DNA of 64,000 nucleotides, taken from positions 320,001 to 384,000 of the forward strand of contig CAWGLD010000007.1 in assembly GCA_963823335.1 (NCBI GenBank). The letters are read 5' to 3'. Below, piece after piece: positions 46,874 to 64,000 of this stretch. Position numbers and translations under genes: made by a program. The number at the start of each line of letters is the position of its first letter. The first letter of the stretch is position 1. The notes below the pieces were generated by a model, which saw nothing but the letters and a program-made list of their open reading frames with translations, was not told where the DNA came from and made no database searches. This DNA is from an uncultured delta proteobacterium. GTDB lineage: Bacteria > Desulfobacterota > Desulfobacteria > Desulfobacterales > B30-G6.

Positions 46874-48352
46874 ATGAAAAAATCAAAAGCCGTCATCGCG
46901 ACCCCTTCCTTTTCCGACTTCTACACCACCACCCATCGCCTGTCGGCTCTGGGCGAAAAAATCGTTGAAAAAATTCTGCGCCGCCGGGCATGGGACACCC
47001 GCTTGCTGCATTTTCCCAGGACGGGAAAACAGACCCTGCCACTACCAGCGGCCCTCTCCCATCTGAAAACCTGTCTGGTTCCAGGTGAGTTCGGTCCCAC
47101 CGCATTCTTTTCCAAATATCAGCGTTTTGGGCCCTCTGCCGAAGACAGTGCCGCCGTCATTCTGACGGAAAATCCCGATGCTGTTTTCCTATCCTGTTTT
47201 GCCTTCGCCTACGCCGACGACACCCTGTCTCTTGCCAGACATCTCAAGGCGCAACGCCCATCCGTGCCCGTCTATGTGGGGGGGGCCGGGGTCAGCGTAC
47301 TCCCGGGATATTTTCAAGCCGAAAAAAGTATCGATGCGGTTATTGCCGGTGAAGCAGAATGGGCCCTGGCAAATTTTCTGGGAGAAGATACAGCCCCGGA
47401 TGACAGTATCGATCCTCACCTCGATAGCCCGGTCCGTATCGACGTCGCCATTGCAAGCACACAGTCTGCCAAAACCGGACAGTGGCTGACAACGGCCCTC
47501 AGTCGGGGATGCCCCCGAAAGTGTCGTTTCTGCGCCAATCACCTGACCCATGGCAGGGTCTTTCGAACCGTCCCCATCGAGGCGTTTTTAGCGGCCCTCC
47601 AGACCTTTTCCAGGGACGTTCCCCTGCACATCAACTTTGAAGACGACAATCTTCTCTTGGGCAAGGACTATTTCTTTGCCCTGCTGGAAGCCATCCGAAA
47701 CCGATTCCCCCGGGTGGATTTCAGCGCAGAAAACGGCATGGACTACCTATTGCTCGACGTCAGCACACTGGACAGGCTCATTGCCCTAGGTTTCAGACAG
47801 TTCAATCTTTCCATGGCATCCCTGTCCCCATCCATTCTGAAGGAATCGCACCGTCAGGGAAACCCGGAACACCTGCAGGAGATTCTTTCTTACCTGAGGC
47901 ACAAAAATATCCCGTCCATCACCTATTTCATTTGCGGTCTGAAACAGGACACACCCGATTCCGTACTTGAAAACCTACGCTTTCTATCCAGACAACCGAC
48001 GCTTATCGGCATATCGCTGTTTTATCCGGTACCGGGTCTGCCGGGATTCAGGGACACCCGACCCTTTTTCGAATCCGACTCCCATCTCTGCACCGGAAGC
48101 GCTGCGTTTCCATGGTCAGGATCCCTCACCACGGCCCAGATGATCACCGCCTTCCGTTTGGCCCGTTTTGTCAATTTCATCCAAAAAAAAGAATACCAGT
48201 CACACGAGGGCGATCTGTTGACACGTATTAAAAATGAAAGAAAACTCTATACCTTCCAGCGCAAGGGAAGGCAAAAATGGATGCTGCGACCGCCGGGTCT
48301 GGATAAAGACATGGAAAAGGCGTTTTTTGAAAATATATATTTTCAGTTTTAG
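46874..48352 (+). CDS. B12-binding-domain radical SAM protein
   Basis: N-terminal cobalamin-binding-like region (V.VGG.G), SRGCPRKCRFC, FEDDN. ATG 46874. Confidence 0.85.
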   Translation: MKKSKAVIATPSFSDFYTTTHRLSALGEKIVEKILRRRAWDTRLLHFPRTGKQTLPLPAALSHLKTCLVPGEFGPTAFFSKYQRFGPSAEDSAAVILTENPDAVFLSCFAFAYADDTLSLARHLKAQRPSVPVYVGGAGVSVLPGYFQAEKSIDAVIAGEAEWALANFLGEDTAPDDSIDPHLDSPVRIDVAIASTQSAKTGQWLTTALSRGCPRKCRFCANHLTHGRVFRTVPIEAFLAALQTFSRDVPLHINFEDDNLLLGKDYFFALLEAIRNRFPRVDFSAENGMDYLLLDVSTLDRLIALGFRQFNLSMASLSPSILKESHRQGNPEHLQEILSYLRHKNIPSITYFICGLKQDTPDSVLENLRFLSRQPTLIGISLFYPVPGLPGFRDTRPFFESDSHLCTGSAAFPWSGSLTTAQMITAFRLARFVNFIQKKEYQSHEGDLLTRIKNERKLYTFQRKGRQKWMLRPPGLDKDMEKAFFENIYFQF

Positions 48353-48605: not shown

Positions 48606-50081
48606 TCACGCCTCCATATGCTCATTCTTCAACGTTTCCAATGCCCTTTCTCGTATCTGATCCAGGGATTGCTGAACATCGGCAGGCAATTTCAGCGGCC
48701 GGTGGTTTTCGAGAATGTCCATGGCCTTACTGACCGCTTTTTGGCCCCATGTTTTTTGCCCCTGGGCCATCCAGGGTTCAAGGGTTTCACGGTTGCAGAG
48801 CTGGGGTTGCCAATGTTCCTGTTTAAAATATTTCATGGTCTGTTCGGTTGAAATAAAGGCGCCCTGGGGACCCACCTGGCGGATCACATCCATGCCGATA
48901 TGCTCCGGGTCGATGTCAAAACCGCGAATAACACGCCTCACGTAGCTGATGATCTCCGCATTCATTACAAGTGCCGCCGGAGACCCCACCAGGCCCTGTC
49001 CCAGATATCCAATGTCATGAATCAGATTGGCACCGTCCAGTCCGGCCATGAGTAAAGAGATAGACCATTCCATGCCGGCCTGCTCATCAGGCACGTGTGC
49101 GTCGCTGACCCCGGCTGTTCCCCACATGGGAATGCCGTAATAATGATACAGATCCGCGCAGGCCGACAGAGCCAGCCTGTATTCCGGACAACCATATACA
49201 CATGCAGATGTCTTCATATCCAGGGTGGACATACCGAACCCGGAAATGATCGGCGCACCTTTGGCCCTTAACTGATGAAGGACGATGCCACTCAAGGCTT
49301 CGGCATTTCCAACGGTAATGGCACCGGCCAGGGTCACCGGTGCGCTGGCCCCGGACATCATACCGGGTGTATAGTTTACCGGGACCGCATTGTCGGCACA
49401 AAAAAAGAGTTTTTTGATGGCCCCCGATGAGTGCATCAACGGCGTCAGTGGCTCAGCATAATGGATATGAATCGGCTTTTCCCTCAAGACATCTTTTCCG
49501 CCAACGACAGCCGCAGCCATCTCATTGATGATGGCGATGTCTTTGGTTCCGGCCGCAGTAAAAAAAATGGGCTTTATGGCGTTTTCCAACTGGGTCTTGA
49601 AGGAATCGATGTACATCAGGTTGGTGGGTGAGTCATATGGCAGGGCATAGGATCCCAAAAAATCGATCTCTTCGAGGGAATCGGCTATCCTGGCGGCATT
49701 TGCCACATCCGCCAGTCTCGACTCTCTCAACACGCCGGACACCAGGTCATAGGTTTTGATCAAATCCGTCCCCATACCGAAATAGGATTTATTGCCTTCC
49801 AGGAGCATGGCCTCCTGACCTAAGCGGTTATAGATGGTGATCCGTGAAGGCGCACTGCGGATGCAGTCTTCAACCAGCCAGTTGGGAATCTGGACGATGT
49901 TGTCTGGTTTTATCCGGCAACCGGCATGGGCCATCATATCCAGGGCCTCCGGATGCATCACCTTGACACCCACCGTTTCCAGGAGTTCCAGGGTGGCACA
50001 ATGAATATGTTCGATCTGATCCCGGGTCAGCACCCGATAGACCGGCAGACATTGTGATTTAAAGCCTGTGTTCATTACCAT
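48606..50081 (-). CDS. Trimethylamine methyltransferase (MttB) superfamily protein, non-pyrrolysine
   Basis: IH..TLELLETVG, GASAPVTLAG...NAE.LSG, SDA.VPDEQAG.E, GANLIHD.G. No in-frame amber. Confidence 0.9.
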   Translation of the reverse strand: MVMNTGFKSQCLPVYRVLTRDQIEHIHCATLELLETVGVKVMHPEALDMMAHAGCRIKPDNIVQIPNWLVEDCIRSAPSRITIYNRLGQEAMLLEGNKSYFGMGTDLIKTYDLVSGVLRESRLADVANAARIADSLEEIDFLGSYALPYDSPTNLMYIDSFKTQLENAIKPIFFTAAGTKDIAIINEMAAAVVGGKDVLREKPIHIHYAEPLTPLMHSSGAIKKLFFCADNAVPVNYTPGMMSGASAPVTLAGAITVGNAEALSGIVLHQLRAKGAPIISGFGMSTLDMKTSACVYGCPEYRLALSACADLYHYYGIPMWGTAGVSDAHVPDEQAGMEWSISLLMAGLDGANLIHDIGYLGQGLVGSPAALVMNAEIISYVRRVIRGFDIDPEHIGMDVIRQVGPQGAFISTEQTMKYFKQEHWQPQLCNRETLEPWMAQGQKTWGQKAVSKAMDILENHRPLKLPADVQQSLDQIRERALETLKNEHMEA

Positions 50082-50156: not shown

Positions 50157-52307
50157 TTATGCAAATTTAGGGTTCATCCGTTTGCATGCCCCGCACACAT
50201 GTATTGTTTCCGGCGCAACCCCATATGGTTTGACCTGTTTTTCCATATACGAAATGTATCTGCCTGCTCCCAGTTCTTTGCCGCATCCATGACAGTATAC
50301 CAGGATATCCCTGCAGAGGGTGATACCGCAAAGCCTGAGAACACACTGACCGTTTTCATGGGTCATGGTCATGGCGCCGGTGGGGCAGCTGTTGACACAA
50401 GCACCGCACAGGATGCACCTTCCGGCGGTTAACTCGAAATCGGTCGGCCCCGGAGCCTGGTGATCAAAATAACCGAGACCCAGTGCTTGAAAACCCAATT
50501 TTTCATGACATGCGTCCACGCATCTGCCGCACTGAATGCACACATCGCACCTGAGGCACCGTAAAGCCTCTGTCCTGGCTGCCTGCGGTGCAAGCGTCAA
50601 TTCCACCTGTTCGAAAGTCTTTTTCCTTTTCTCTATATCAAGCAGGGGCAACGATGGTCTGGTTAGCGTTGTTTTCTGAGATGCCGTTGTTTCAAGAAAA
50701 GCTGTCTGTGTCCTGCGGGCCGAAAGATATCGTGTTTTCAGCAAAGGCTGTCCCTGGAAGTATCGATGGACGTTCTCCGCCGCTAGTTTTCCAGCCGCAA
50801 TGGCCTCGATAATGGTGGCCGGACCTGTAACCAAATCGCCGCCTGCAAAAACACCTTTTGCTCCTGTCTGCCCCGTCAAAGGATCCGCGACGATGGTGTT
50901 GTGTTCCGTCCACGTCAGACCATTAAAGGCCGAAAGCCCTTCCCGGTCAGACCACTGCCCTATGGCATGAAGAACAGCATCGGTCTTGAGCTCATGCATG
51001 CTCCCCTGGATGGGGATGGGTCTTTTTCTGCCGTTTTCATCGGCCTCCCCGAGCCTGGCGTCCACACAACAAATACCGGACACCTTGCTCTGGGACCCCG
51101 ATATCTCCACAGGAATCTTCAAAAAGGACACCCGGACACCCTCCTGCTCCGCCTGGATGACATCCTCCTTCAGGGCCGGCATTTCACTCCGGGTCCGTCG
51201 GTACAGAACCGTAACATCGCTGCTACCCAAACGCAGTGCCGTTCGGGCGGCATCCAGCGCGACATTACCTCCCCCCACAACTGCCACACGAGAACCAATG
51301 GAAGGTGCATGCCCCAGACCGGCCTGATGTAAATACGTAATGGCATCCATGACCGGTGAAAAATCATTTTCACCTTTTATACCCATTCGCAGCCCTTTGT
51401 GGGCTCCCGTTGCAACATAGAAGGATTCAAACCCTTCCTGTCGCAACGCTTCAACCGTTATGTCCTTTCCCATACGCGTGTTGAAACGAAAGACAACACC
51501 CAGTTCTTGAATCAAAGAAATCTCTCTTTCGAGAACGGACAGGGGCAGCCGGTATCTTGGGATGCCAACACGCATCATCCCGCCGGCCCACGGCAGAGAT
51601 TCGATGACGGTTACACCATAGCCCTTGAGGGATAAATAGTAGGCCGCGCTGAGTCCGGATGGTCCGGCACCCACAATACAGACTTTGTGACCGTTGTCCT
51701 GTGCCCTGGCAGGGTTTTTAAAGCCATCACCCTCAAGGACAATTTTGGATGAAAAGGCTTTGAGGGCCTTGATGGCAACAGGTGTGTCGATGTTTTTCCT
51801 CAGGCAGGCTGTTTCACACGGATGTGTACAGGTCAGGCCGCACACCCATGGGAAAGGGTTGGCTTCCCGAATCAGCGCTATTGCTTCATGATCTCTACCC
51901 TGCCCGATCAAGGTCACGTAGCTTGCCACATCGATACCGGCTGGGCAGGCACATTGACACGCTGCCGGTGACAAAATTTCGCAATCACCCGTCAGACAGA
52001 CATGATCCCTCATATGGGTCTCAAAACAGACACCTTCTGAAAACAGTACCGCTGCAATGGTTTTGCCCAAGAATGCGACCATTTCATTTTGTGAGGATTC
52101 AAGATATTTCCCCAGAGATTCGACCCTGGACAGGTCTTGGGGAAGTGCTTTTCCAAGAGAGATTTTTTCCAGGCTGGCACACAGCGATAAAAGCGCTTTT
52201 ATTAAATGAGGGGCGAGTTGTTTCTGTGATAAACAGGTGCAATCCGAGAGTAGTCGGAACACCGGGCATGAAGGACGTTTTCCTTTCTCAACACTTGTAA
52301 CTTTCAT
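50157..52307 (-). CDS. NAD(P)H-dependent FAD/Fe-S oxidoreductase (GltD/NfnB-like with degenerate NuoF tail and C-terminal ferredoxin)
   Basis: CQCACPAG, CGLTC..PCE..C, VGAGPSG, VGGGNVA.D, RR, FAGGD, CLRC, CIQCGRC, CILCGACVNSCP. Confidence 0.88.
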   Translation of the reverse strand: MKVTSVEKGKRPSCPVFRLLSDCTCLSQKQLAPHLIKALLSLCASLEKISLGKALPQDLSRVESLGKYLESSQNEMVAFLGKTIAAVLFSEGVCFETHMRDHVCLTGDCEILSPAACQCACPAGIDVASYVTLIGQGRDHEAIALIREANPFPWVCGLTCTHPCETACLRKNIDTPVAIKALKAFSSKIVLEGDGFKNPARAQDNGHKVCIVGAGPSGLSAAYYLSLKGYGVTVIESLPWAGGMMRVGIPRYRLPLSVLEREISLIQELGVVFRFNTRMGKDITVEALRQEGFESFYVATGAHKGLRMGIKGENDFSPVMDAITYLHQAGLGHAPSIGSRVAVVGGGNVALDAARTALRLGSSDVTVLYRRTRSEMPALKEDVIQAEQEGVRVSFLKIPVEISGSQSKVSGICCVDARLGEADENGRKRPIPIQGSMHELKTDAVLHAIGQWSDREGLSAFNGLTWTEHNTIVADPLTGQTGAKGVFAGGDLVTGPATIIEAIAAGKLAAENVHRYFQGQPLLKTRYLSARRTQTAFLETTASQKTTLTRPSLPLLDIEKRKKTFEQVELTLAPQAARTEALRCLRCDVCIQCGRCVDACHEKLGFQALGLGYFDHQAPGPTDFELTAGRCILCGACVNSCPTGAMTMTHENGQCVLRLCGITLCRDILVYCHGCGKELGAGRYISYMEKQVKPYGVAPETIHVCGACKRMNPKFA

Positions 52308-52422: not shown

Positions 52423-53493
52423 TTAGGCTCTATCCAGATTTTCCTCTATATTCTCGAAATCAAAGCCTTCAGGATACTTGGAATAATACTCATGGTACCA
52501 TTCCCTTGCCTCATAAGCCTGGATCAGATGTTCCGCCGGAACACCGAATGGGAGATCTCAGCCGGGGGCAAATGTGAACCCCTGGGTACCGCCTGCCGCA
52601 AGACTGATCAGGGCATCTTCTCTGGGTGACAGAAGTCCCAGGCCGAGGGCAAGGGTCAACTTCAGATTTCCACCAAACCCTTTACCGTATTTTCTTGCGA
52701 TATCACGGACAAAATTCAGGTTCATCTGTTCATCGATGGCAAATCCGTGGGTACCGACCTTGCAGACATCTTCAATGACCTTTGTGCAGTCACCACAGAT
52801 GAAGAAGCTGGAAGTCTTGCCGGCATCATGTATGGCTGTTACGGCTTCCTGGCAGTTGGGTGTCACATATTCCTGAAAAGTCTCAGGTCGAATCTGCGAC
52901 GCTACCGGATCCACGATAGCGATGATATCACACCCCATTTGCGTATAAAACCGGGCAGACTCGGCACAGAGTTTACCGGCATAGGCTATAATGGCATGAG
53001 CGAAATCCTTCTTTTTTTTCAATGCCGTAAAAATACGCACACCGGCCAGATGAGAAGCCAGGGTCAGGGGTCCGGTCACCAGGCCGAGCATGGCGCAGTC
53101 CATTTCGTCGAGTTGCGGTTTGACCTTGGCTGCCGCCTGGAAAATGATCGGCCACCTTCCGGATGTTTTTGTAAACACCCCCAGCCCGAGTTCTTCGGGT
53201 GTCAACTTTTCACAGGGATGGGTCTTCACCGAAGGCACATTGTCTTCCCAGTATTCCAGTTCACAACCAATGGATTCCGCTTCCAGGGAGAGATCGAACA
53301 AGAGGGGGATGCCATCCGCATGATAGGTTTTGGCGGCATGGACAACTCCCCGGGAAAGGATATCCGCATCCTTGAGATACCTGTCTGCTTTTTCATTGAT
53401 AAGATAGGCACAGTTGACACCGGCATACGGAACCCAGGGGGCCTTGTCCGTTTCTTTCCCCCGTGTGGCGTCGATGAGCATCTGTTTGGCCAT
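52423..53493 (-). CDS. MtaA/CmuA (UroD-family) methylcobamide methyltransferase, predicted selenoprotein (356 aa, Sec312)
   Basis: PWVPY.G, DL.LEAE..GC, GPLTLASHL, DPVASQI, GGNL. In-frame TGA (52558-52560) falls in APG*DLP where the family has Cys. Frame continues 44 aa to TAA at 52423. Confidence 0.82.
52522..52557 (-). promoter_or_regulatory. Putative bacterial SECIS element
   Basis: Immediately after UGA: GATCTCCCATTCGGTGTTCC-GGC-GGAACATCTGATC. Apical loop begins with G ~20 nt from the UGA. Confidence 0.65.
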
Positions 53494-53654: not shown

Positions 53655-54404
53655 TTATTTTTCTCGTATAGATCTGAACTGGCAGTGTTTCATCGCGCAT
53701 TGCAGGCATTTACTGCCCACGGGCTTTTGCTGCGCCGAATCACTGTATATGACAAAACCGGATATGGATTTTGCCGGTTGCATGACAAACGCATCATTCA
53801 GGTGCACACCGGCTGTGTCTTGTCCCAACAGATCGAATATCAGGGTCTGGCTTTCCAGGGCCACGCCATTCAGACCCGGTCCCATCCGACATCCGGAAAA
53901 AAGACCCATCCGTTGTGCATGCATCTCAATCATGTCATTGCATATCAACCCCATGGCATCCAGCATGGCTGTGCCAACAGCATCCAGCAGCAGGGATTGG
54001 TATATGCTGTTGCGTTTTGCAAGATCCCGGCACATGGTCTCGAGGGCACTGCCCAGGCTGCCGACAAAAACAGCAACATACCGGGCATCACTCTCCCACC
54101 TGTCAGGAAGCATGTCAGCATATGCGCCCCTTGACAAAACGATTCCGTATACTTCTTCAATCATGTCCATCGGAATCGCTCGATAACAAATAACCGCCTG
54201 TATCATCCCGACAGTCTGCCGGATGCCCTGGCATACCTGTTGACGTGTCTCCGGGGTCATGGGATAGTCCGGCCCCCCGAAGTAGCGGGCAACAGCCTCT
54301 GGTGACGGCCTGACATCTTCCGGGTCGACGTCAATTCTCACCGTCGATGAATCACCTGCCCCGAATATATCGGCAGTTATGAGTTTTTTCGGTTTGACAG
54401 TCAT
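53655..54404 (-). CDS. Stand-alone cobalamin-dependent methionine synthase activation-domain protein
   Basis: F.GSLG..LE, LLDAVGTA, R.GPG, Q..IFDLL, GV.L...VMQPAKSISG, C-terminal CLQC...C.FR. Confidence 0.85.
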   Translation of the reverse strand: MTVKPKKLITADIFGAGDSSTVRIDVDPEDVRPSPEAVARYFGGPDYPMTPETRQQVCQGIRQTVGMIQAVICYRAIPMDMIEEVYGIVLSRGAYADMLPDRWESDARYVAVFVGSLGSALETMCRDLAKRNSIYQSLLLDAVGTAMLDAMGLICNDMIEMHAQRMGLFSGCRMGPGLNGVALESQTLIFDLLGQDTAGVHLNDAFVMQPAKSISGFVIYSDSAQQKPVGSKCLQCAMKHCQFRSIREK

Positions 54405-54521: not shown

Positions 54522-54548
54522 AAATAAAATCGCCCGGCGATTTTATTT
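54522..54548. terminator. Intrinsic terminator-like hairpin after the mtmB-like gene
   Basis: AAATAAAATCGC-CCG-GCGATTTTATTT 12-bp perfect stem abutting the stop codon. Confidence 0.55.
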
Positions 54549-55930
54549 TAGTAGGGAAACTCAATTCCCATGTCTGCGATTTCATCTTTGATTCTGCGGT
54601 ACATATCGTAATGTTCCTGGGTCGGCACCGCTTTGGCGACATCGTAGCATTCATGGTACTCACTCCCGATGGGCGCATCTGCGGCATGGTCCTCGTATTT
54701 TGCCAGCAATTTCTTGGCAATCGCATTGACTTCGGCCCGGGACAAGCCCTGGCACGCGACAGCATGGCCCACTTCCATGCCGATTCTGGCTTCCAGCGGT
54801 GTTGCACGATTCTTGTATTTGTTGCGGGTCGAAGCCATCTCCCACAGGTGCCATCCAGTGACCGTCGAGACCATGGCGTGAACCGCGGTTTCCCGAAACA
54901 GCATCTCCGTCATGGGACCGGCATTGGCGAATCCATTGGAAGTATGCAGCAGTTTACTGTTTCTGGCCAGCGCCTGCCCTGCCATGGCGATGGCCCACAG
55001 CAACTCCCGGGTGGTGTTGGAACCGTAATTCAAATGAAATGGAAAGTGCTGATTGAAAACAGCACCGTGAATCACCAGACCGATAAGACTGTAGGCGACC
55101 GTGGTCACCGCCGTTCCCTCTGAGCCGCCGCACCATCCACCGTAAATCGCCCCGGTCAGGTTCCCGGTATAGCAGCCATACTGGGCATAATGAAGGGAGC
55201 GATTGAGAAGTGTGTCGGCGGTCTTGAACTCGGTCAGGGACCCTACAAGCCGTGCATCTGATTTTTGAACGCCCCACTCCTGGTTTGATACGGCGATTTG
55301 ACCGCTGTCGTGCTCCGCGGTCCCCACGGCAACCATAAATGTTCCCGGCCGTCCCAGCAGTCTTGCCGCCAGCTTCTGATTGGTGATGTGCTGGATACAG
55401 CCGCTGATTTCAGAGGGACCCGAAGATTCGATCAGATGACCAAAGGTCTCTTCCAGGATCGGCCCGCAAATGCCGTCCAGAAGTGGTTCCTTGAGATAGG
55501 CCATGCACATGGACTGGTGGTACTGCTCGTCACAGGTGATGTCCGGGCTCATGATACAGAATGGGGGGGCCGTGTCTTCCACCTGCCGGTGTTTCCACAG
55601 GACAGCGTCTTTTCCGGCACCCACCCAATATTGATCATGGGCCATATACAGCGCTTCCCGAATCTCTTCATCGGTGACCTGGATCAGCCGGTGGGAATCG
55701 GTATTGTAATACCCCACATCCCGGAACAGCTCCCAGGCAGCCTGCCAGATTCTGTCAGCCATGGCATCGTCTGTGGGGCACGGGTTTTCCGGGTCATATT
55801 TTATTTCATATTTTTTGATAAGTTTTTTCAGGGTCGGTGTAAAGTGCTTGGGAAGAAAATCATCCTCCTCCATAAAAGGACCGGTCTGGGATCGTTCGAG
55901 AATCTCCCAGTGCCTGTAGGCTGTTGTCAT
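54548..55930 (-). CDS. Monomethylamine methyltransferase (MtmB) family protein, non-pyrrolysine
   Basis: 460 aa. TGP.M.E.DF, DD.MAD..WQA, GRPG, IYGG.CGG.EG.A, AGP.TEM, P.EAR, P.G..Y.ECYD. No amber. Confidence 0.88.
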   Translation of the reverse strand: MTTAYRHWEILERSQTGPFMEEDDFLPKHFTPTLKKLIKKYEIKYDPENPCPTDDAMADRIWQAAWELFRDVGYYNTDSHRLIQVTDEEIREALYMAHDQYWVGAGKDAVLWKHRQVEDTAPPFCIMSPDITCDEQYHQSMCMAYLKEPLLDGICGPILEETFGHLIESSGPSEISGCIQHITNQKLAARLLGRPGTFMVAVGTAEHDSGQIAVSNQEWGVQKSDARLVGSLTEFKTADTLLNRSLHYAQYGCYTGNLTGAIYGGWCGGSEGTAVTTVAYSLIGLVIHGAVFNQHFPFHLNYGSNTTRELLWAIAMAGQALARNSKLLHTSNGFANAGPMTEMLFRETAVHAMVSTVTGWHLWEMASTRNKYKNRATPLEARIGMEVGHAVACQGLSRAEVNAIAKKLLAKYEDHAADAPIGSEYHECYDVAKAVPTQEHYDMYRRIKDEIADMGIEFPY

Positions 55931-56205: not shown

Positions 56206-56841
56206 TCATTTTGAGATGATCAAGTTTGCTAAAAGTTCAGGCGCACTCTTGGCGTCCTTACAGTAAAGGTCGGCACCGATCTGGTCGGCCCAAAGCTGGG
56301 AAGTGGGCGCACCACCGATAACAACCTTATATTGATCCCTTATCCCTTTTGAATTTAAAATCTCTATGATTTCTTTCTGACGTGGCATGGTGGTGGTCAT
56401 CAGCGATGAAGCGCCGATGAAATCAGCACCCATGGCCTCGGCCTCCTTGATAAAGGTCAGCGGATCCACGTTGTATCCCAGATCCTTCACCACGAAACCA
56501 TTGGTTTCCAGGATGAGCTTGACGATATTTTTGCCGATTTCATGCAGGTCCCCTTTGACCACGCCGATCACGATCTTGCCTTTGACTTCCTGTCCGCCGA
56601 CCTCGTCCAGATAGGGCGCCATTACCTCGACCACAGCGGACAAGGCCTCTCCGGCCAGCATGATCTCGGGAAGGAAAATTTCCAGTTTTGAAAACAGGTC
56701 CCCCACATGTGCCATGGTCCTGGTCATGGCCGCTATCATTTCCAGAGGGTTTGCACCGTCCTTGAGAAGCCTTTCGGCAAGCTCCCGGGCCTCCTCTGCT
56801 TCACCGTCTTCCACAAATTTGCTCAATTCCTCCAACGACAT
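56206..56841 (-). CDS. Corrinoid (cobalamin-binding) protein, MtmC/MttC family
   Basis: VG.LF...EIFLPE, GDLHEIGKN (DxHxxG), SSLMTTT, IGGAP. RBS AAGGAGG before ATG 56841. Confidence 0.93.
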   Translation of the reverse strand: MSLEELSKFVEDGEAEEARELAERLLKDGANPLEMIAAMTRTMAHVGDLFSKLEIFLPEIMLAGEALSAVVEVMAPYLDEVGGQEVKGKIVIGVVKGDLHEIGKNIVKLILETNGFVVKDLGYNVDPLTFIKEAEAMGADFIGASSLMTTTMPRQKEIIEILNSKGIRDQYKVVIGGAPTSQLWADQIGADLYCKDAKSAPELLANLIISK

Positions 56842-57047
56842 GTCAGGCCTCCTTGCTATCAGCTCTTTTAGGATAATAATATAGATTGTTATAATAACGC
56901 ATTTCACCTTGCCCTGAAGCAAGATGTTGCCGTAAAAAATCAGAAATTCCGGAGAACTAGATGAACATCGAATCCCGTCACGGCGGGAAACGTTCAGCAT
57001 CCAACGTCGAATACGACAGGTCTCCGCATTTTGTACGGCTTCCTAAG

Positions 57048-57120: not shown

Positions 57121-57867
57121 TTATGGGGTCATGTTTTCCTGTTTAAAGAAATCGGCTGGGTCGAACTGGGGCGAGAAGGTATCCCGGAAAGCCATCTCAC
57201 CGCGCATGTAATACTCCACATAGGTAACCGGATCGTCAAATGAATAGATCGTCCGCTTGATATGGAACACAGGATAACCCGGTTTTACACCAAAGATGGG
57301 GGCGGTCTCTTCTGAAAGAACGATCGCCTCCATACTCTGGCTGATCCTGGTAAGCTGCAGTTTGTATTTATTGATCAGAATGCTGTGAATGGATTCGTTT
57401 TTGAGATCCTCCCAGAGAATACCGGCACAGATATCAGGCCGTAGGTACCGTATTTCGTAACGCACCGGCTTTTGATCGAAATACCACAGACGGCTGATAA
57501 GAATCAACTGCTCCCCGGTTTCCAGCTGTTTTGAAACATCGGCCGGAGGGTCTACCACCTGTGCCTTTTGAACATCCGTTGTCAGAACCACGTTCAGATC
57601 GTCAGCCCACTTCTGAAACGGTCTGACCCGGAAAAATCCGGTGGTGTAATGCTTCTTCTTCACGAAGGTACCCTTGCCCGGCACGCGCTCAACAAACCCT
57701 TCCCTCTCTATGGCATCGATGGCTTTTCTGGCCGTCATGCGGCTGACACCAAAGGTTTCCGCCAGCCTGTTTTCCGAAGGCACAACATCCAAAAAATTTC
57801 GTGCCTTGATGCCTTTGATGACATACTCCTTTATCTTTTCGTATTTCGGAATCTTTTTTTGCATCAT
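57121..57867 (-). CDS. hutC: GntR/UTRA family regulator, HutC-like
   Basis: PKYEKIK, PSE..LA..FGVSRMTARKA, PGKGTFV, UTRA domain, divergent from hutU. Confidence 0.82.
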   Translation of the reverse strand: MMQKKIPKYEKIKEYVIKGIKARNFLDVVPSENRLAETFGVSRMTARKAIDAIEREGFVERVPGKGTFVKKKHYTTGFFRVRPFQKWADDLNVVLTTDVQKAQVVDPPADVSKQLETGEQLILISRLWYFDQKPVRYEIRYLRPDICAGILWEDLKNESIHSILINKYKLQLTRISQSMEAIVLSEETAPIFGVKPGYPVFHIKRTIYSFDDPVTYVEYYMRGEMAFRDTFSPQFDPADFFKQENMTP

Positions 57868-57895
57868 ACATCCCCGTTTCACGGTCTGAAAACCC

Positions 57896-57905
57896 TGTAT
57901 ATACA
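57896..57905. promoter_or_regulatory. HutC-type operator upstream of hutC
   Basis: TGTATATACA. Confidence 0.7.
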
Positions 57906-57995
57906 TCTGGCACACTATAGCCCCACCCGTTTGGATTGTCGAGAGCAAATTCCGCTTGACAAGTCCGGGAACGATGGTCATAACTACTCTTTGAT

Positions 57996-58062: not shown

Positions 58063-60096
58063 GTGACAACCCATCCCCTTGCTGGTGATACCATGATGAT
58101 CGAACCGGACCAAAATCTCCCCGAACTGCCTGAGTTTGAAAGAGATATTCGCCGGGCCCCGGACCGCGGCTTTCGTCTGACACCCCAACAGGCTGAAATA
58201 TCGCTGAAAAATGCCCTGCGCTATATTCCCGTAAAATGGCACGAAACCCTGGCATCCGAATTTCTGAATGAGTTGATGACACGTGGGAGGATCTATGGTT
58301 ACCGGTATAGACCCGCAGGGCCCATCAAGGCCAGGCCGGTTCATTCCTACACAGGCAGATGTCTTGCCGGAAAAGCCTTCCAGGTGATGATCGACAACAA
58401 CCTTGATTTTGACGTCGCCCTCTATCCTTATGAACTGGTGACCTATGGAGAAACCGGGTCTGTCTGCCAGAACTGGATGCAGTATCGCCTGATAAAAAAA
58501 TATCTGGAAGTACTCACCGAGGACCAGACTCTGGTGGTGGCATCCGGTCATCCCCTGGGGCTTTTTCAATCAAGACCGACCAACCCCCGGGTCATCATTA
58601 CCAACGGATTGATGGTTGGCAGATATGACAACCTGGATGATTGGGAAATTGCCGCCCAGATGGGAGTGGCAAGTTACGGCCAGATGACGGCTGGAGGATG
58701 GATGTATATCGGTCCCCAGGGTATTGTGCATGGGACCTACAATACACTCCTGAACGCAGGTAGAATAAGATTCGGTCTGAGCAAGGAAGCCAATCTTGCC
58801 GGACGACTGTTTGTCTCTTCAGGCCTGGGGGGCATGAGCGGCGCTCAACCAAAAGCCGCAGAGATCGCCGGAGCCGTATCCATTATCGCCGAGGTTGATG
58901 GCTCCAGGATACTGACCCGGCACCAGCAGGGCTGGGTAAAACATGTCTCTGACGATCTGGAAGAAACCTTTGCCCTGGCGGCTCAGGCCACTCAGAAGGG
59001 GGAACCGCTCTCCATCGCTTTTGCCGGGAACATCGTCGATCTGCTGGAGTACGCGGTGGACCACAACATAAAAATCGACCTGCTTTCGGATCAGACGTCA
59101 TGCCATGTGGCCTATACCGGCGGGTACTGCCCCCAGGGCATCACCTTTGAAGAAAGAACCCGGCTCCTGGCAGAAAACAGAGGGACATTCTGTAAGCTTG
59201 TGGATAAAAGCCTCCGTCGCCACTTTGAATTGATCAAGATTCTCACGTCCAGGGGTGTCTATTTTTTTGATTACGGCAATGCGTTTCTAAAAGCGGTTTT
59301 CGACGCAGGCGTAACCGAAATTTCCAACAATGGCCTCGACGAAAAGGACGGGTTCATCTTTCCATCCTACTTTGAGGACATCATGGGACCCCATATTTTT
59401 GATTTCGGATACGGCCCGTTCCGCTGGGTCTGTTTGAGCGGTGATCATAATGACCTGGTAAAGACCGACAAGGCAGCCATGGACTGCATCGATCCCCTTC
59501 GCAGGTATCAGGACAGGGACAACTGGACCTGGATCAGGGATGCGGAAAAGTACCATCTCGTAGTGGGAACCCAGGCCAGGATCCTGTATCAGGACGCGGA
59601 AGGCAGAATCAGGATCGCACTGAAATTCAACGAGATGGTAAGAAAGGGAGACGTGGGCCCCATAATGATCGGCCGGGATCACCACGATCCCGGCGGGACG
59701 GATTCACCCTTCCGGGAAACAGCCAATATAAATGATGGCAGCAATGTGATGGCCGACATGGCCACCCACTGTTTTGGTGGAAACTGCGCCAGGGGTATGT
59801 CCATGGTCGCTCTGCACAACGGTGGCGGGACAGGGATAGGAAATGCCATAAACGGCGGGTTTGGCCTGGTGCTGGACGGCAGTCAGAGAGTGGACGACAC
59901 CATCCGGTCCGCTATTTCCTGGGATGTCATGGGCGGTGTGGCCAGACGGAACTGGGCCCGCAATACCAATGCCATGGAGGTCTGCCGAACCTTCAATGAG
60001 GCGAACAAGGGTGTGGGTCATGTCACCATTCCCTATCTGCCGGAAGAAAGCCTGGTTAAGGATATCGTGTCCAACGCTTTTAAGAAAAGGTCCTGA
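58063..60096 (+). CDS. hutU: Urocanate hydratase (long form)
   Basis: MIDNNLD..VA.YPYELVTYG, YGQMTAGGWMYIGPQGIVHGT, GLGGMSGAQ, SDQTSCH, GRDHHD, HNGGG. RBS AAGGAGG. Confidence 0.95.
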   Translation: MTTHPLAGDTMMIEPDQNLPELPEFERDIRRAPDRGFRLTPQQAEISLKNALRYIPVKWHETLASEFLNELMTRGRIYGYRYRPAGPIKARPVHSYTGRCLAGKAFQVMIDNNLDFDVALYPYELVTYGETGSVCQNWMQYRLIKKYLEVLTEDQTLVVASGHPLGLFQSRPTNPRVIITNGLMVGRYDNLDDWEIAAQMGVASYGQMTAGGWMYIGPQGIVHGTYNTLLNAGRIRFGLSKEANLAGRLFVSSGLGGMSGAQPKAAEIAGAVSIIAEVDGSRILTRHQQGWVKHVSDDLEETFALAAQATQKGEPLSIAFAGNIVDLLEYAVDHNIKIDLLSDQTSCHVAYTGGYCPQGITFEERTRLLAENRGTFCKLVDKSLRRHFELIKILTSRGVYFFDYGNAFLKAVFDAGVTEISNNGLDEKDGFIFPSYFEDIMGPHIFDFGYGPFRWVCLSGDHNDLVKTDKAAMDCIDPLRRYQDRDNWTWIRDAEKYHLVVGTQARILYQDAEGRIRIALKFNEMVRKGDVGPIMIGRDHHDPGGTDSPFRETANINDGSNVMADMATHCFGGNCARGMSMVALHNGGGTGIGNAINGGFGLVLDGSQRVDDTIRSAISWDVMGGVARRNWARNTNAMEVCRTFNEANKGVGHVTIPYLPEESLVKDIVSNAFKKRS

Positions 60097-60097
60097 A

Positions 60098-61663
60098 ATG
60101 CAATCCATTGTTATCGACAAGGAAAATTTGACCATTGAGGATGTGGTGGCCATCGCCCGAAAAGGTGTGCGGGTCGATGCCTCCAGCCAGGGCGTGCTGC
60201 GGGTCGAAAAAGCCCGTGAGCTGATCGCCAAATGGGTCAGTGAAAAAAAAGTGATCTATGGAATCACCACCGGGTTTGGCGCCTTGTGCAATGTTCCCAT
60301 TTCGGAATCCGACACCCGGTTGCTGCAGAATAAAATCATCATGAGCCACGCCTCGGGCGTGGGGTCACCCCTTCCCGAAGATGTTGTTCGGGCTGTAATG
60401 GCCGTCCGGCTGCATGACCTGTTCATGGGATACTCCGGCTGTTCAATCACGACCCTGCGGTACTTGATGGCCTTTCTCAACCAGGGGCTGACACCGGTCG
60501 TGCCTGAAAAGGGATCGGTGGGATCCAGCGGAGACCTGGCACCCATGGCTCACCTGGGTCTGGTTCTGTTAGGAAAAGGCGAGGCTTTTTATAAGGGCGA
60601 ACGCCTCAGCGGTGCCAGGGCACTGGAAAAGATCGGACTTTCCCCCATCAGCCTTGCAGCCGGGGAAGGTCTGGCCCTTATCAACGGTACCCAGGTAATG
60701 ACCGGCATCGCCACCCTGGTGGTTCACGATGCCATCCGCCTGGCAAAAATGGCTGACATCGCCTGCGCCATGAGCCTGGAAGTGCTCATGGGAAGCAATT
60801 CTGAATTCGACCCGCGAATTCATCAGATACGACCTCATCCGGGGCAGATTGCGTCAGCCGAAAATATGCTGCGACTGACCAGTGAAAGTGAAATCATTCT
60901 CTCCCACGAAGGATGCGCCCGTGTTCAGGATGCCTATACCCTGCGATGTTCGCCCCAGATTCACGGTGCCAGTAAGGATGCCGTCGTACATGCTCAAAAT
61001 GTTGTGAAGATTGAAATCAATGCATCCACCACCAACCCGTTGATCTTCACCGACACCCAGGAGATCCGCCTGGGAGGAAATTTTCACGGCCAGCCCATCG
61101 CCATGGCAGCCGATTACCTCTCCATGGGGATTGCCGAATTAGGGAATGTGTCCGAACGTCGCATCGAAAGGCTGGTCAACCCGCAATTGAGCGAACTGCC
61201 CGCCTTTCTGGTAAAAAACGGCGGACTCAATTCAGGATTCATGATAGCCCAGTACACGGCCGCCGCCCTGGTTTCCGAAAACAAAGTGCTGGCACATCCA
61301 GCTTGTGTGGACTCGATTCCCACTTCTGCGAACAAGGAAGACCATGTCAGCATGGGCACCATCGCTATTCGACAGTGCCGGGAAATTCTGGATAATGTAG
61401 AGCATGTTCTTGCCGTGGAGATGCTGTGCGCTGCTCAGGCCTATGATCTCCTGAATGAAAAGAACAAAATGATGGGAGGCAGGGGCACTCGGGTAGCCCA
61501 CCAGGTAATTCGAGAAACAATTTCCTATCTTGAAGAAGACCGGGAGCTGTTCATAGATATCGAAAAGATGGTGGCCCTGATCCGCTCAGGTAAAATAATA
61601 CACGCAGTGGAAAAGGCTGTGGGTAAGCTCGATCTGGTCAGCTTTGATAAACAGAGCTGCTGA
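60098..61663 (+). CDS. hutH: Histidine ammonia-lyase
   Basis: YGITTGFG, SHASG, GSVGSSGDLAP (MIO-forming tripeptide SSG), LINGTQ, QDAYTLRC, GGNFHG, EDHVSMG. Confidence 0.92.
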   Translation: MQSIVIDKENLTIEDVVAIARKGVRVDASSQGVLRVEKARELIAKWVSEKKVIYGITTGFGALCNVPISESDTRLLQNKIIMSHASGVGSPLPEDVVRAVMAVRLHDLFMGYSGCSITTLRYLMAFLNQGLTPVVPEKGSVGSSGDLAPMAHLGLVLLGKGEAFYKGERLSGARALEKIGLSPISLAAGEGLALINGTQVMTGIATLVVHDAIRLAKMADIACAMSLEVLMGSNSEFDPRIHQIRPHPGQIASAENMLRLTSESEIILSHEGCARVQDAYTLRCSPQIHGASKDAVVHAQNVVKIEINASTTNPLIFTDTQEIRLGGNFHGQPIAMAADYLSMGIAELGNVSERRIERLVNPQLSELPAFLVKNGGLNSGFMIAQYTAAALVSENKVLAHPACVDSIPTSANKEDHVSMGTIAIRQCREILDNVEHVLAVEMLCAAQAYDLLNEKNKMMGGRGTRVAHQVIRETISYLEEDRELFIDIEKMVALIRSGKIIHAVEKAVGKLDLVSFDKQSC

Positions 61664-61749: not shown

Positions 61750-62241
61750 ATGAATGTTGTATTTGTTGAACTTGATCGGTGCATTGCCTGCTTGAGTTGT
61801 GAAAAGGCATGTCTGTTTCAACAGGCAGCCAGAAACACAGAGGCAAGCCCGAATATCTTTGTTCGCGTGGACCTGGACCGACGCCGGATTTATGCCGGCA
61901 CATGCCTGCAGTGTGAAACCGCTCTCTGCCTGGAAGTATGCCCGATCAAAGCCATAACACGAGATCCGGAAACGTCGGCCGTTATCGTCGATCAGAAGAT
62001 TTGTCTCGGGTGTGGTATGTGCGTATCGGCCTGCCCTTTTGGATACATGTACCTGGAAGACTCCTGCCAAAAGGCAACCAAATGCGACCTGTGCGGCGGT
62101 ACGCCGAAGTGCGTTCAGATGTGCATGGCCAGGGCCTTACATTTCGGCAGCATCAATTCTCTTGCCGAACGCAAACGTAAACAGACCGATTTGCGCCTGA
62201 GTCTTAGGGCCGTCCCAATCCATACGGGTGAAGAAAAATGA
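61750..62241 (+). CDS. 4Fe-4S dicluster electron-transfer subunit (DmsB/HydN-like)
   Basis: CIACLSCEKAC, CLQC...CLEVCP, CLGCGMCVSACP, KCDLC...CV..C. Confidence 0.9.
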   Translation: MNVVFVELDRCIACLSCEKACLFQQAARNTEASPNIFVRVDLDRRRIYAGTCLQCETALCLEVCPIKAITRDPETSAVIVDQKICLGCGMCVSACPFGYMYLEDSCQKATKCDLCGGTPKCVQMCMARALHFGSINSLAERKRKQTDLRLSLRAVPIHTGEEK

Positions 62242-64000
62242 CGGGCAGGACCTTTGTTGAAAACGCGGTCGTAAAAACCCTGTGCCGCATGTGCAGCAAC
62301 CGCTGCAGCATCGATGTACACGTCCAGGATGGCCGTATGGTTGAAATCACACCCGGGCAGGGAAACCCCTGCAACCAGGGCAGGATGTGCCCCCGGGGAG
62401 GTGCTGCGCTGGATATGTTTTATCACCCCGACCGTATCCGCACACCCTTGAAGAGACTTGACGACGGCTCATTTGTGAAAATCAGCCGCGAAACAGCCAT
62501 TGCTGAAATTGCCGAGAAGATGATGCAGATTAAGCATCGCTATGGTGCCCGGTCCATGGGGGTATGGAAAGGCGAGGCGATCGGTTTCCTTCAGCAGGAG
62601 GAGTATGCCCGCAGGTTTGCCCACGCATTCGGCACACCCAATTATTTTTCCAACGATTCTGCCTGTTACAATGGCCGATTTCTGGGGCACATGCTGGTAA
62701 ACGGTTTCTGGAATCCCTTTTCCTACTATGCCAAGGCGGACCTGATTCTGATTTTCGGCACCAACCCACCTGTGTGCCACCCGCCTTTCATGGCCGAATT
62801 TGCCGATGCCAAGGCAAACGGTGCCAATCTGGTGGTGATCGATCCGAGACTGAATCCCATTGCCTGCTACGCCGATGTTTTTGCCCAGCCCCTGCCGGGC
62901 ACCGATGGTGCCATAGCCTGGGGTCTGATTCGTTATATTGTCAAGGCCGGTGAATATGATCACGAGCTGATGGATCGCTACAGCATCGGATTTGAGGAAG
63001 TAGTCGCCTACGCGGAAAAATTCAGCCCTGATTATGTCGAAGAACAAACCGGTGTCTATGCCGATGTTGTGGTCAAAATCGCTCAACTGATTGTTGAGAA
63101 CCGTCCCAAGATCAGTTTTTATATGGGTGCCGGTCTGGAGCACCACGACAACGGCGTCGACAACATCCGTGCCCTGGTGATCCTGTCCTGCATTACGGGT
63201 GCCTTTGATATGGATTGCGGGCTTTACTGGCCCGACGACATGCCCAGGAACGCCTTGACTCTGTATGACGAACTGCCTCTGGAAAAGGAAAAACCCATCG
63301 GTGCCGACCGCTTCCCGGTGCTTTACGAGCTTCGCAAGGAGTGCCATTCCATGACCGCCATGGATTATATGCTCGGCAAGGGCGAGTATCCGTTGAAGGG
63401 ACTCATCGTCACCGCCGCCAATCCAGCCGTCACCAATCCCAACACCCGCAAGGTGGAAGCGGCCCTGGGATCTCTGGACCTCCTGGTGGTCAATGACCTG
63501 TTTCTGACGAAGACCGCCCGGCTGGCACATTATATCCTGCCCGCCGCCTCCTTTTTGGAACGTTCCGAAATCCACATCGACCCTAAATATCAACGTGTCT
63601 ATCTCACCAGCAAGGTGGCGGAAATTCCGGGAATAAAAGACGAATACATGCTCTGGCACGACCTGGCCCATGTCCTGGGCTTTGGTGAGCGCTACTTCCC
63701 GTGGGAAAACGAGACCCAGGTCAACCAGTTTATACTGGAGCCTTCCAATATCCGGCTCGAACAGCTGCAGGCCCATCCGGAAGGGATTCAGTATAAACCA
63801 CTGACGTTCCAGAAACATCTCTCGCGACCCCTGCCGACAGCCTCAGGAAAAATCGAACTGGCTTCCTCTTACTTAAAAAAGCTCGGTTTTTCAGCAATCC
63901 CCGAATACGTGCCGCCCTATCACCTGCGCGAGAAGTCAGAGGACTACCCTTTCATTCTCACCACAGGTGCACGCAAGACCCTGTTGTATCACTCCAGACA
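62238..64000 (+). CDS. Mo/W-bisPGD (DMSO reductase family) oxidoreductase, no Tat signal; 3' end beyond window
   Basis: Manual translation from ATG 62238 (ATGA overlap): KTLCRMCSNRC...MCPRG, HPDRIRTPLKR, NDSACY, GTNP, VIDPR, PGTDGA, DLFLTKTA..A.YILPAAS.LER, PTASGKIEL, ILTTGAR. Absent from the ORF track. Confidence 0.92.
   Translation, partial: MTGRTFVENAVVKTLCRMCSNRCSIDVHVQDGRMVEITPGQGNPCNQGRMCPRGGAALDMFYHPDRIRTPLKRLDDGSFVKISRETAIAEIAEKMMQIKHRYGARSMGVWKGEAIGFLQQEEYARRFAHAFGTPNYFSNDSACYNGRFLGHMLVNGFWNPFSYYAKADLILIFGTNPPVCHPPFMAEFADAKANGANLVVIDPRLNPIACYADVFAQPLPGTDGAIAWGLIRYIVKAGEYDHELMDRYSIGFEEVVAYAEKFSPDYVEEQTGVYADVVVKIAQLIVENRPKISFYMGAGLEHHDNGVDNIRALVILSCITGAFDMDCGLYWPDDMPRNALTLYDELPLEKEKPIGADRFPVLYELRKECHSMTAMDYMLGKGEYPLKGLIVTAANPAVTNPNTRKVEAALGSLDLLVVNDLFLTKTARLAHYILPAASFLERSEIHIDPKYQRVYLTSKVAEIPGIKDEYMLWHDLAHVLGFGERYFPWENETQVNQFILEPSNIRLEQLQAHPEGIQYKPLTFQKHLSRPLPTASGKIELASSYLKKLGFSAIPEYVPPYHLREKSEDYPFILTTGARKTLLYHSR

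Follow-up and report, generated by a model that had tools for sequence, protein, structure and literature searches.

RESULTS

A molybdenum or tungsten enzyme is encoded behind hutH

The DNA analyzed here (the window) is a stretch of 64,000 nucleotides from an uncultured delta proteobacterium of the Desulfobacterales (GCA_963823335.1, contig CAWGLD010000007.1; G000:C7:320001-384000 in our numbering). Close to its end, behind the histidine ammonia-lyase gene hutH, lie a ferredoxin gene (fer) and an open reading frame (ORF) that begins with the ATG at position 62238 and is still open where the window stops. We refer to the product of this ORF as Mo1. A preliminary description of the window had taken it for a cytoplasmic molybdenum- or tungsten-bis-pyranopterin (Mo/W-bisPGD) enzyme of a hutUH operon, and had suggested that it cleaves a carbon-sulfur bond of, or otherwise reduces, an imidazole ring derived from histidine.

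Residues 1 to 587 of Mo1 are encoded inside the window (62238..64000, plus strand), and the stop codon lies 298 nt beyond the window end, giving a full length of 686 amino acids (L004 6238-8298). Pfam assigns the protein the domains Molybdop_Fe4S4 (PF04879, residues 11 to 63, E = 1e-14), Molybdopterin (PF00384, residues 66 to 452, E = 1.5e-33) and Molydop_binding (PF01568, residues 572 to 680, E = 1.9e-16). The four cysteines of its CxxCxxxC...C motif (C16, C19, C23 and C51) are invariant in 23/23 aligned family members. Cys143, in an NDSAC motif, is invariant in two alignments (23/23 and 7/7). Its counterpart in alignments is the ligand Cys in acetylene hydratase (2e7z) and in the formate dehydrogenase FdhF of hydrogen-dependent CO2 reductase (HDCR; 7qv7), and the TGA-encoded residue in the same genome's selenocysteine formate dehydrogenase. 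We read no twin-arginine translocation (Tat) motif in the N terminus, where only one Arg occurs among the 15 residues before the first cluster Cys, and found no membrane subunit gene adjacent to Mo1. An AlphaFold model (predicted local distance difference test score, pLDDT, 83.8; predicted TM-score, pTM, 0.88) matched the folds of solved superfamily members with TM-scores (TMq) of 0.73 to 0.86. In domains, fold, four-Cys motif and metal ligand, Mo1 is a member of the Mo/W-bisPGD (dimethyl sulfoxide [DMSO] reductase/MopB) superfamily. We conclude from its sequence that Mo1 is the predicted catalytic subunit of a soluble, cytoplasmic Mo- or W-bis-pyranopterin enzyme with a Cys ligand to the metal and an N-terminal [4Fe-4S] cluster.

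The upstream partner, Fer, is a protein of 163 amino acids (61750..62241, plus strand) recognized by Fer4_11 (E = 3.8e-16) and related Pfam models; its best NCBIfam match, a DmsB-type model, fell under the cut-off. Because 16 Cys residues are invariant in 14/14 homologs, Fer has room for four [4Fe-4S] clusters. The stop codon of fer and the start codon of Mo1 overlap in an ATGA, and we take Fer to be the electron-transfer subunit that is made together with Mo1. Upstream, hutH (60098..61663, plus strand; TIGR01225, 668 bits against a cut-off of 539) encodes an enzyme with an S-S-G motif of the kind that forms the 4-methylideneimidazole-5-one (MIO) cofactor. An 86-nt gap separates the end of hutH at 61663 from the start of fer, with no terminator-like hairpin on its plus strand. 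This spacer is poorly conserved and holds no common element among nine close loci, and a search for riboswitches or other RNAs found no Rfam match at E <= 0.1 in L004 1-20000.

These results confirm what the preliminary description had observed. Each sequence feature that it named in the ORF from 62238 (the four-Cys motif, the Cys ligand and the lack of a Tat signal) is present, the ATGA overlap agrees with its claim of translational coupling, and its placing of fer directly after hutH fits both the 86-nt gap and the gene order conserved among close loci. It had also allowed for a C-terminal fusion hidden past the window; the protein ends at residue 686 and carries no Aminotran_5 domain.

Gene order and co-occurrence tie Mo1 to hut and to corrinoid methyl transfer

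We examined 20 loci from species genomes and 80 from metagenomes, all searched with the island proteins; 99 have a Mo1 match. These were classed by the identity of their Mo1 to the window protein (at least 70%, 55 to 69%, or below 55%). A ferredoxin gene lies directly 5' of Mo1 in 16/18, 24/29 and 9/25 loci of the three classes, respectively. Since the pair recurs in public contigs, the pairing of fer with Mo1 is not due to chance. The tie to hutH is confined to the close relatives: hutH lies directly 5' of fer on the same strand in 12/13 loci of the first class, 2/21 of the second and 0/8 of the third. Hence, the proposed tie between Mo1 and hutUH holds as a conserved gene order among close loci. 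The sole exception among the 13, L013 from a metagenome-assembled genome (MAG) of a Desulfosarcina sp. (Mo1 84%), has an island without hutU-hutH between the regulator and fer-Mo1. In five loci (L015, L029, L030, L031 and L054) fer-Mo1 closes a complete hut operon with the order hutU-FTCD-hutI-hutH-fer-Mo1.

A second set of neighbors concerns corrinoid-dependent methyl transfer. Fifty-three loci have at least 6 kb of flanking sequence; 30 of them carry a gene for an MtmB-like protein, MttB or a corrinoid protein. Counted singly in the same 53 loci, hut genes occur in 17, MttB-family genes in 18 and an SBP_bac_3-type importer in 17 to 18. Five loci with Mo1 identities of 48 to 59% show a co-directional order of corrinoid protein, MtmB-like protein, MttB and Mo1. 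The link to methyl transfer therefore runs deeper than the link to hut. The gene for the corrinoid activator RACo lies directly 3' of Mo1 in 5/8 loci of the first class, in 0/19 of the second and in 0/23 of the third. In a more distant metagenome locus, L080 (Mo1 homolog, 42% identity), two corrinoid proteins, a URO-D-type methyltransferase and an oligopeptide-type ABC system stand beside the Mo1 relative; the family's corrinoid link therefore extends to other methyltransferase types.

To measure co-occurrence, we used a single, evenly drawn sample of 201 genomes from the order. Mo1 (E <= 1e-150) was found in 24 and the MtmB-like gene (E <= 1e-120) in 26. All 24 Mo1-positive genomes, and 2 of the 177 Mo1-negative ones, have the MtmB-like gene; the positives come from 18 genera, and related genomes among the 201 are not independent. 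Read from the places listed, the two genes lie within 13 kb of each other on one contig in 18/24 genomes. We conclude that, by gene content, the deeper and stricter partner of the Mo1 family is the corrinoid methyltransferase system, which the preliminary description had not noticed, and not Hut. The Mo1 clade is inherited and placed together with an MtmB-like enzyme, a corrinoid protein, RACo, often MttB, and a polar-amino-acid ABC importer; in this lineage, histidine-utilization genes under a predicted HutC-like regulator also travel with it.

Mo1 lies in a clade without a characterized member

None of the 26 NCBIfam matches of Mo1 reached its cut-off. The best were to formate dehydrogenase alpha subunit (Fdh-alpha, TIGR01591; 316.4 bits against 666.25), PhsA (258 against 694) and NasC (247 against 1100); models of S- and N-oxide reductases scored low (bisC_fam, 117 bits against 1017; TorA, 58 bits). 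By sequence, its best solved relatives, at about E = 1e-60, are FdhF of HDCR, acetylene hydratase and F420-formate dehydrogenase, with acetylene hydratase and FdhF scoring 211 to 212 bits. By fold they are acetylene hydratase 2e7z (TMq 0.86), PsrA (0.83) and formate dehydrogenases (0.75 to 0.81).

The residues around the active site set Mo1 apart from each of these. Its metal ligand is followed by Tyr (C143-Y144) where formate dehydrogenase has His, a position occupied by Y, F, N or A across the clade, and GLYWP replaces the PLRGQNNVQG motif that carries the formate dehydrogenase Arg. After C19, S20 stands in place of the acetylene hydratase Asp (S, A, N or G in the clade). We take the His beside the Sec/Cys ligand and the active-site Arg to serve formate dehydrogenases in catalysis, and the Asp after the second cluster Cys to do so in acetylene hydratase.

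Three established identities were considered and rejected. Cytoplasmic formate dehydrogenases (FdhF 7qv7; TIGR01591) give the best hidden Markov model (HMM) and PDB sequence scores and have similar ferredoxin-type partners, but they have the His after the ligand and the PLRGQNNVQG motif; the score under the cut-off and the missing His and Arg rule this identity out. Acetylene hydratase offers the best fold (26% identity), the second-best PDB sequence match (E = 3.8e-61), and the same size, cluster motif and Cys ligand. It is a single, non-redox subunit, however, whereas Mo1 has electron-transfer partners; the coupled ferredoxin subunit and the Ser in place of Asp rule it out. PsrA/PhsA with PsrB carry out reductive sulfur chemistry at a Cys-ligated metal and use a four-cluster partner. 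Mo1 differs from them in having neither Tat signal nor membrane anchor gene, and a Phs-like clade (P0271 and a gene from contig C3 of this genome) falls elsewhere in the trees. A Phs/Psr identity is ruled out by the score of 258 against 694 bits, the N terminus without twin Arg and the lack of an adjacent membrane subunit.

A search of 1.84 billion representatives yielded 16,039 relatives of Mo1 at E <= 0.001. Mo1 fell into a clade of its own with support of 100 in a FastTree phylogeny of 139 rows and 99 in a quick IQ-TREE phylogeny of 52 rows. The clade holds Mo1, its paralog Mo2, P0122 and P0125 to P0128, joined by P0124 in the 139-row tree only; P0124, whose C-terminal part diverges, was omitted from the 52-row tree and from the count of special residues given below. 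From 131 representatives spread over the surrounding radiation, 68 were scanned and none reached a curated NCBIfam cut-off; the sole curated match at E <= 1e-140 among those 68 was to PhsA at 500 bits, under its cut-off of 694. A cluster look-up and a protein atlas returned only generic labels for the Mo1 family. Members of the clade also occur in Bacillota MAGs. The backbone of the tree around the clade appears unresolved, and the clade itself is, as far as these comparisons indicate, a distinct one without a characterized member. The preliminary description had kept in view that Mo1 might cluster with a characterized, unrelated clade; by its NCBIfam scores, it belongs to no characterized clade.

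Relation to the metallopterin ergothioneine synthase

According to PMC9516567, the metallopterin module of the metallopterin ergothioneine synthase (MES) exchanges sulfur between ergothioneine and trimethylhistidine, reversibly. The preliminary description had proposed that Mo1 might run comparable chemistry in the direction of desulfurization of ergothioneine or thiourocanate. Among the relatives of known kind, the best-scoring was P0237 (276 bits, 32% identity), a protein of 1139 amino acids whose Molybdopterin, Molydop_binding and Aminotran_5 domains give the MES build; it is named MES-like from this domain build only, as PMC9516567 describes it. Mo1 shares with the MES of Caldithrix abyssi a cytoplasmic location, a four-Cys cluster motif near the N terminus and Cys as the metal ligand. 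The substrate of MES is a histidine derivative, on whose imidazole ring the enzyme transfers sulfur in both directions (PMC9516567). Unlike MES, Mo1 is paired with a four-cluster ferredoxin and probably with an NAD(P)H flavoprotein, and no cysteine desulfurase is fused to it: it lacks the C-terminal pyridoxal phosphate-dependent domain of that type, and the next gene is that for RACo. Because of the ferredoxin and the likely flavoprotein, we would expect Mo1 to catalyze a net redox reaction and not a transfer of sulfur.

We could not uphold a specific kinship between Mo1 and MES. The clades lie apart in the trees, there is no excess of shared residues, and an approximately unbiased (AU) test was indecisive: the tree constrained to a Mo1+MES clade was 1.82 log-likelihood units better, with a p-AU of 0.529, and sisterhood was neither shown nor rejected. 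We find the ergothioneine proposal of the preliminary description supported in part.

The island in the window

The plus-strand genes start with hutU (58063..60096), which encodes a long-form urocanate hydratase of 677 amino acids (TIGR01228, 435 bits against a cut-off of 375) and lies far under the cut-offs of two thiourocanate hydratase models (305 against 930 bits and 344 against 880). Between hutU and a divergent minus-strand operon stands a HutC-like GntR/UTRA regulator (57121..57981, minus strand; Pfam GntR and UTRA; HutC, 120.5 bits against a cut-off of 220), whose actual start probably lies farther downstream than the first start codon in frame.

From the regulator outward, the minus-strand operon encodes six proteins. 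The corrinoid (B12-binding) protein (56206..57000) has the Pfam domains B12-binding and B12-binding_2 and resembles MtgC/pyl_corrinoid (181 bits, under the cut-off). It is followed by the MtmB-like methyltransferase (54548..55930; Pfam MtmB, E = 9.4e-87), an uninterrupted ORF of 460 amino acids that has a single copy in this genome; it has no in-frame stop and is therefore a non-pyrrolysine form. This protein is much more conserved than its neighbors, with 95 to 97% identity in loci where Mo1 has 84 to 90%. Next come a protein resembling the B12 activation domain of methionine synthase (53655..54404; Pfam Met_synt_B12, E = 4.6e-9; no NCBIfam match), an MtaA/CmuA-like methylcorrinoid methyltransferase of the URO-D family (52558..53493; Pfam URO-D; TIGR01463, 121 bits against a cut-off of 235), and a GltD/YgfK-like NAD(P)H flavoprotein with Fe-S domains (50157..52307; Pfam Pyr_redox_2, Fer4_20 and Fer4_7; PRK12771, 501 bits against a cut-off of 516). 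The last gene encodes a non-pyrrolysine methyltransferase of the MttB family (48606..50081; Pfam MTTB, E = 2.2e-97; TIGR02369, 428 bits against a cut-off of 525). Just upstream of this operon, at window positions 45116-48352, a multiheme cytochrome c gene (531 amino acids, minus strand) and a B12-binding radical SAM gene (551 amino acids, plus strand) stand back to back.

Genes beyond the window and elsewhere in the genome

Past the window end, the RACo gene directly 3' of Mo1 is followed by a minus-strand operon (L004 10401-17458, equal to G000:C7:386401-393458) that encodes a GntR-FCD regulator, MttB, Mo2, a BBE-type FAD enzyme and an uncharacterized protein of 321 amino acids with no Pfam or NCBIfam match. 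Mo2 is a paralog of Mo1 (705 amino acids, 46% identity) without an adjacent ferredoxin; its pairing with MttB was found again in locus L018. Mo1 and Mo2 are the only two Mo1-clade genes in the genome. Farther on lie FTCD genes, hutI, a second hutH-hutU pair, another MttB gene and a polar-amino-acid ABC importer. For the binding protein of the importer, the nearest solved relatives after 9e2b (an entry without ligand name) are cationic-amino-acid binders; a text search for the code 9e2b returned unrelated papers only.

A third set of hutU, hutH and hutI lies with MttB on contig C8. This brings the hutH/hutU sets of the genome to three (including G000:C7:395579-405957, locus L025, and G000:C8:5826-18805, locus L026); each has an MttB-family gene and an ABC importer next to it, and by alignment the X-S-G MIO motif is kept in all three HutH paralogs. 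The HutU of C8 scored 778 bits against an S-methyl thiourocanate hydratase model (cut-off 880) and 715 against hutU, and its set also includes an M20 hydrolase and an amidase. A tblastn search found 18 MttB-family matches that cover half of the query or more, which is a high number for a bacterium. There was no EgtD-type histidine N-alpha-methyltransferase among the Pfam and NCBIfam matches from window position 38085 to L004 20000, a survey that included no search aimed at EgtD.

A paralogous module on contig C3 (G000:C3:106737-112387; L107 2737-8387, minus strand) joins a PhsA-like Mo enzyme of 694 amino acids, a 2Fe-2S/4Fe-4S protein of 344 and a GltD-like flavoprotein of 718 that is 45% identical to the one in the window. 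In L046 and L047, hutH and fer-Mo1 are separated by a GltD-like gene, and in L048, L057, L058, L063, L078 and L086 a Pyr_redox_2 gene lies 5' of fer-Mo1. These gene orders and the C3 module suggest an electron path from NAD(P)H through flavoprotein and ferredoxin to Mo1, with the GltD-like flavoprotein as the likely electron input for Fer-Mo1.

The locus is detected in RNA libraries

Parts of the locus are held in 19 RNA runs, 17 labeled estuary and 2 sediment, and at least half of the sampled words of the locus are present in four of the 19. Contigs of those four estuary libraries match L004 1-11000, from hutU through RACo, at 95% identity or more in 27 to 28 of 30 bins. The fer/Mo1 junction is bridged by one contig (X4 record 30) and the Mo1/RACo junction by three (X1 record 7, X2 record 15 and X4 record 32), although contigs of this kind cannot prove a single transcript.

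DISCUSSION

What might an enzyme of this kind do between a polar-amino-acid importer, a corrinoid methyltransferase system and the hut genes? The reading that we favor, and hold tentatively, is that Mo1 is a reductase that removes a ring substituent, likely sulfur, from a methylated histidine derivative before it enters Hut. The island would import a ring-modified, methylated L-histidine. Electrons from NAD(P)H would pass via the GltD-like flavoprotein and ferredoxin to the metal of Mo1, which would remove, by two-electron reduction, a ring substituent beyond the reach of the methyltransferase and HutH. This substituent would most likely be sulfur, abstracted as an atom by the reduced metal and then released as H2S; such a desulfurization would invert the sulfur transfer demonstrated for the ergothioneine synthase module. 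The corrinoid system would then take off the methyl group, and plain histidine would go into HutH and HutU.

The nature of the substrate is suggested by the company that Mo1 keeps. Because of the importer, the hut genes, the MIO motif and the MtmB-like partner, we expect an L-histidine with a methyl group on the ring or on sulfur and with a substituent that leaves by two-electron reduction. Natural products known to have both features are the methylated thiohistidines, such as ovothiol A and the S-methyl-thiohistidines. A methylated thiohistidine with a free alpha-amino group, of the type of ovothiol A or S-methyl-thiohistidine, would fit the gene set best. Ergothioneine would fit less well because it is a betaine with three methyl groups, and the importer type and the MIO-type HutH seem better suited to a free alpha-amino group than to this betaine; on this point we depart from the preliminary description, which had named ergothioneine as a possible substrate. 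That the metallopterin class can move sulfur on and off an imidazole follows from the MES module (PMC9516567). In its most specific form, the proposal would make Fer-Mo1, fed by NAD(P)H, a thiohistidine-desulfurizing reductase in a hitherto unknown anaerobic pathway of ovothiol A-type uptake, H2S release, MtmB-like demethylation and Hut. This full sequence we regard as possible but doubtful.

To our knowledge, MtqB is the only non-pyrrolysine MtmB protein with a known function. The MtqB/MtqC pair of Methanococcoides methylutens, as PMC13044021 presents it, resembles the system here in joining an MtmB-family protein without pyrrolysine to a neighboring corrinoid protein, a likeness by family and not by sequence comparison. 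MtqB acts on tetramethylammonium and choline in a methanogen (PMC13044021), whereas the MtmB-like protein here sits with hut, an amino-acid importer and Mo1 in sulfate reducers. Our literature search found no paper connecting a molybdoenzyme with demethylation of the MttB or MtmB type, or hercynine or methylhistidine with corrinoid demethylation. It found nothing on the anaerobic breakdown of methylated or thiolated histidines, and no title on ovothiol catabolism among the papers listed; the available portions of an arsenic-demethylation preprint and of PMC11887813 held nothing relevant.

Several observations weigh against a histidine-directed desulfurizing reductase. None of the partner genes occurs in 12 of the 53 loci with sufficient flank, none of the 12 having a Mo1 above 61% identity, and HutH lies near Mo1 in just 1 of 22 loci below 55% identity. 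Because of these partnerless loci and the rarity of the hut link below 55%, the family may act on several substrates. A single promoter-like match sits at the end of hutH, no bridge from hutH to fer is present among the RNA contig pieces listed, and the RNA libraries may contain DNA. In the 52-row tree Mo1 joins the genome's own selenocysteine formate dehydrogenase with support of 96, on a long branch of 1.52. The MES-like clade (7 rows, support 100) is separate from Mo1 in both trees, and the special residues common to the two clades, defined as those shared by two clades and rare elsewhere, amount to one position, against 0 to 2 for five control clades. The RACo gene directly after Mo1 also fits a role in electron supply. 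Finally, we infer the sulfur step by asking which derivatives of histidine combine a methyl group with one that requires redox chemistry.

Other reactions must be weighed on the same evidence. Keeping the same island and substrate class, Mo1 might reduce an S-oxide, an N-oxide or a ring oxo or hydroxy group (reductive dehydroxylation) on the substrate or the methyl donor, with no C-S cleavage. Oxygen-atom abstraction is the commonest reaction of the enzyme family, wiring through NAD(P)H flavoprotein and ferredoxin suits any reductase, and the several methyltransferase types, including URO-D, with corrinoid proteins in L080 suit a general pattern of demethylating and removing a ring heteroatom. 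However, no abundant natural S-oxide, N-oxide or oxo derivative of a methylated histidine with a free alpha-amino group is known to us, and the bisC_fam and TorA scores given above are low; we think such a reaction unlikely. A role in electron supply would have Mo1-Fer oxidize a donor, or relay NAD(P)H electrons, for the reactivation of the corrinoid protein by RACo, without acting on a histidine-derived substrate. It would account for the RACo gene directly 3' of Mo1 in 5/8 close loci, for the RNA-library contigs that bridge the two genes, and for a family that follows corrinoid systems deeper than hut genes and co-occurs strictly with the MtmB-like gene. Yet RACo is adjacent in none of the 19 and 23 less similar loci, the one donor reaction that suggests itself, oxidation of formate, is excluded because Mo1 lacks the His and Arg, and other corrinoid systems work without such an enzyme; this genome itself has 18 MttB-family genes and two of the Mo1 clade. 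We judge electron supply to be quite unlikely.

For ergothioneine itself, Mo1 would run the MES reaction backwards, to hercynine and H2S, or desulfurize thiourocanate, while MttB and the MtmB-like enzyme demethylate the betaine. The reversible sulfur exchange of MES (PMC9516567), the standing of P0237 and the AU result speak for this, as do MttB-family neighbors in 18/53 loci, since known MttB substrates are quaternary amines. Nevertheless, the importer is of polar-amino-acid and not betaine type, HutH and HutU pass the canonical models while HutU is far under the thiourocanate hydratase cut-offs, and the MIO motif, as expected of an enzyme for a primary amine, is kept in every HutH paralog. 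The betaine would have to lose three N-methyl groups, of which the second and third have no evident enzyme. Mo1 is neither fused to a cysteine desulfurase nor encoded beside one, and the residues that it has in common with MES-like proteins show no excess. We give this version little credence. Another candidate is an oxidative demethylation, in which Mo1 would dehydrogenate or hydroxylate an N-methyl group of the secondary or tertiary amine left after corrinoid demethylation, standing in for pyrrolysine enzymes that the organism may lack. Mo1 is consistently placed with two different methyltransferases and one corrinoid protein, and according to PMC13044021, quaternary amines are the only substrates known to date for members of these families that lack pyrrolysine. 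Against this, Mo1 has a Cys ligand and is formate dehydrogenase- or acetylene hydratase-like, and its flavoprotein partner resembles those of NAD(P)H-dependent reductases; the known C-H-hydroxylating members of the superfamily are periplasmic, with an Asp ligand and heme subunits. This reaction, too, we consider improbable. That Mo1 is an ordinary formate dehydrogenase, acetylene hydratase or thiosulfate/polysulfide reductase that merely lies beside hutH is the suggestion of its top NCBIfam models (Fdh-alpha, PhsA and NasC), of its top PDB matches by sequence and fold (FdhF, acetylene hydratase and PsrA) and of the one tree that groups it with the genome's own formate dehydrogenase. It is contradicted by scores far under 666, 694 and 1100 bits, by Tyr for the His after the ligand, no Arg at the formate dehydrogenase site and Ser for the acetylene hydratase Asp, by the lack of a Tat signal and a membrane subunit, and by a hutH gene order and MtmB-like co-occurrence conserved across genera. 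We regard it as highly improbable.

Reduction of a sulfur-bearing, methylated histidine therefore stays the reading that we pursue. If it is true, Fer-Mo1 would do for sulfur atoms what DMSO reductase does for oxygen, and would mirror the ergothioneine synthase module on the catabolic side. A widespread, uncharacterized clade of cytoplasmic Mo/W enzymes would gain its first function, metallopterin chemistry on an imidazole ring would have a second example, and after MtqB there would be a second context in which a non-pyrrolysine MtmB homolog has a physiological role. Methylated and sulfur-bearing histidine compounds are made in quantity by marine animals and algae, and the pathway would provide an anaerobic fate for them. 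Even if the sulfur step is wrong, the pairing of Mo1 with the MtmB-like gene, in 24/24 positive genomes out of 201, is a sharply testable lead, and the gene set shows which proteins are concerned and narrows the substrates to a short list. Within a known enzyme superfamily, Mo1 represents a new clade that is tightly bound to a catabolic module not described before and that can be detected in RNA libraries from sediment; its specific chemistry is what we infer. The island of Mo1, the MtmB-like gene and hut points to an undescribed digestion of a modified, possibly sulfur-bearing histidine compound in sulfate-reducing sediment bacteria.

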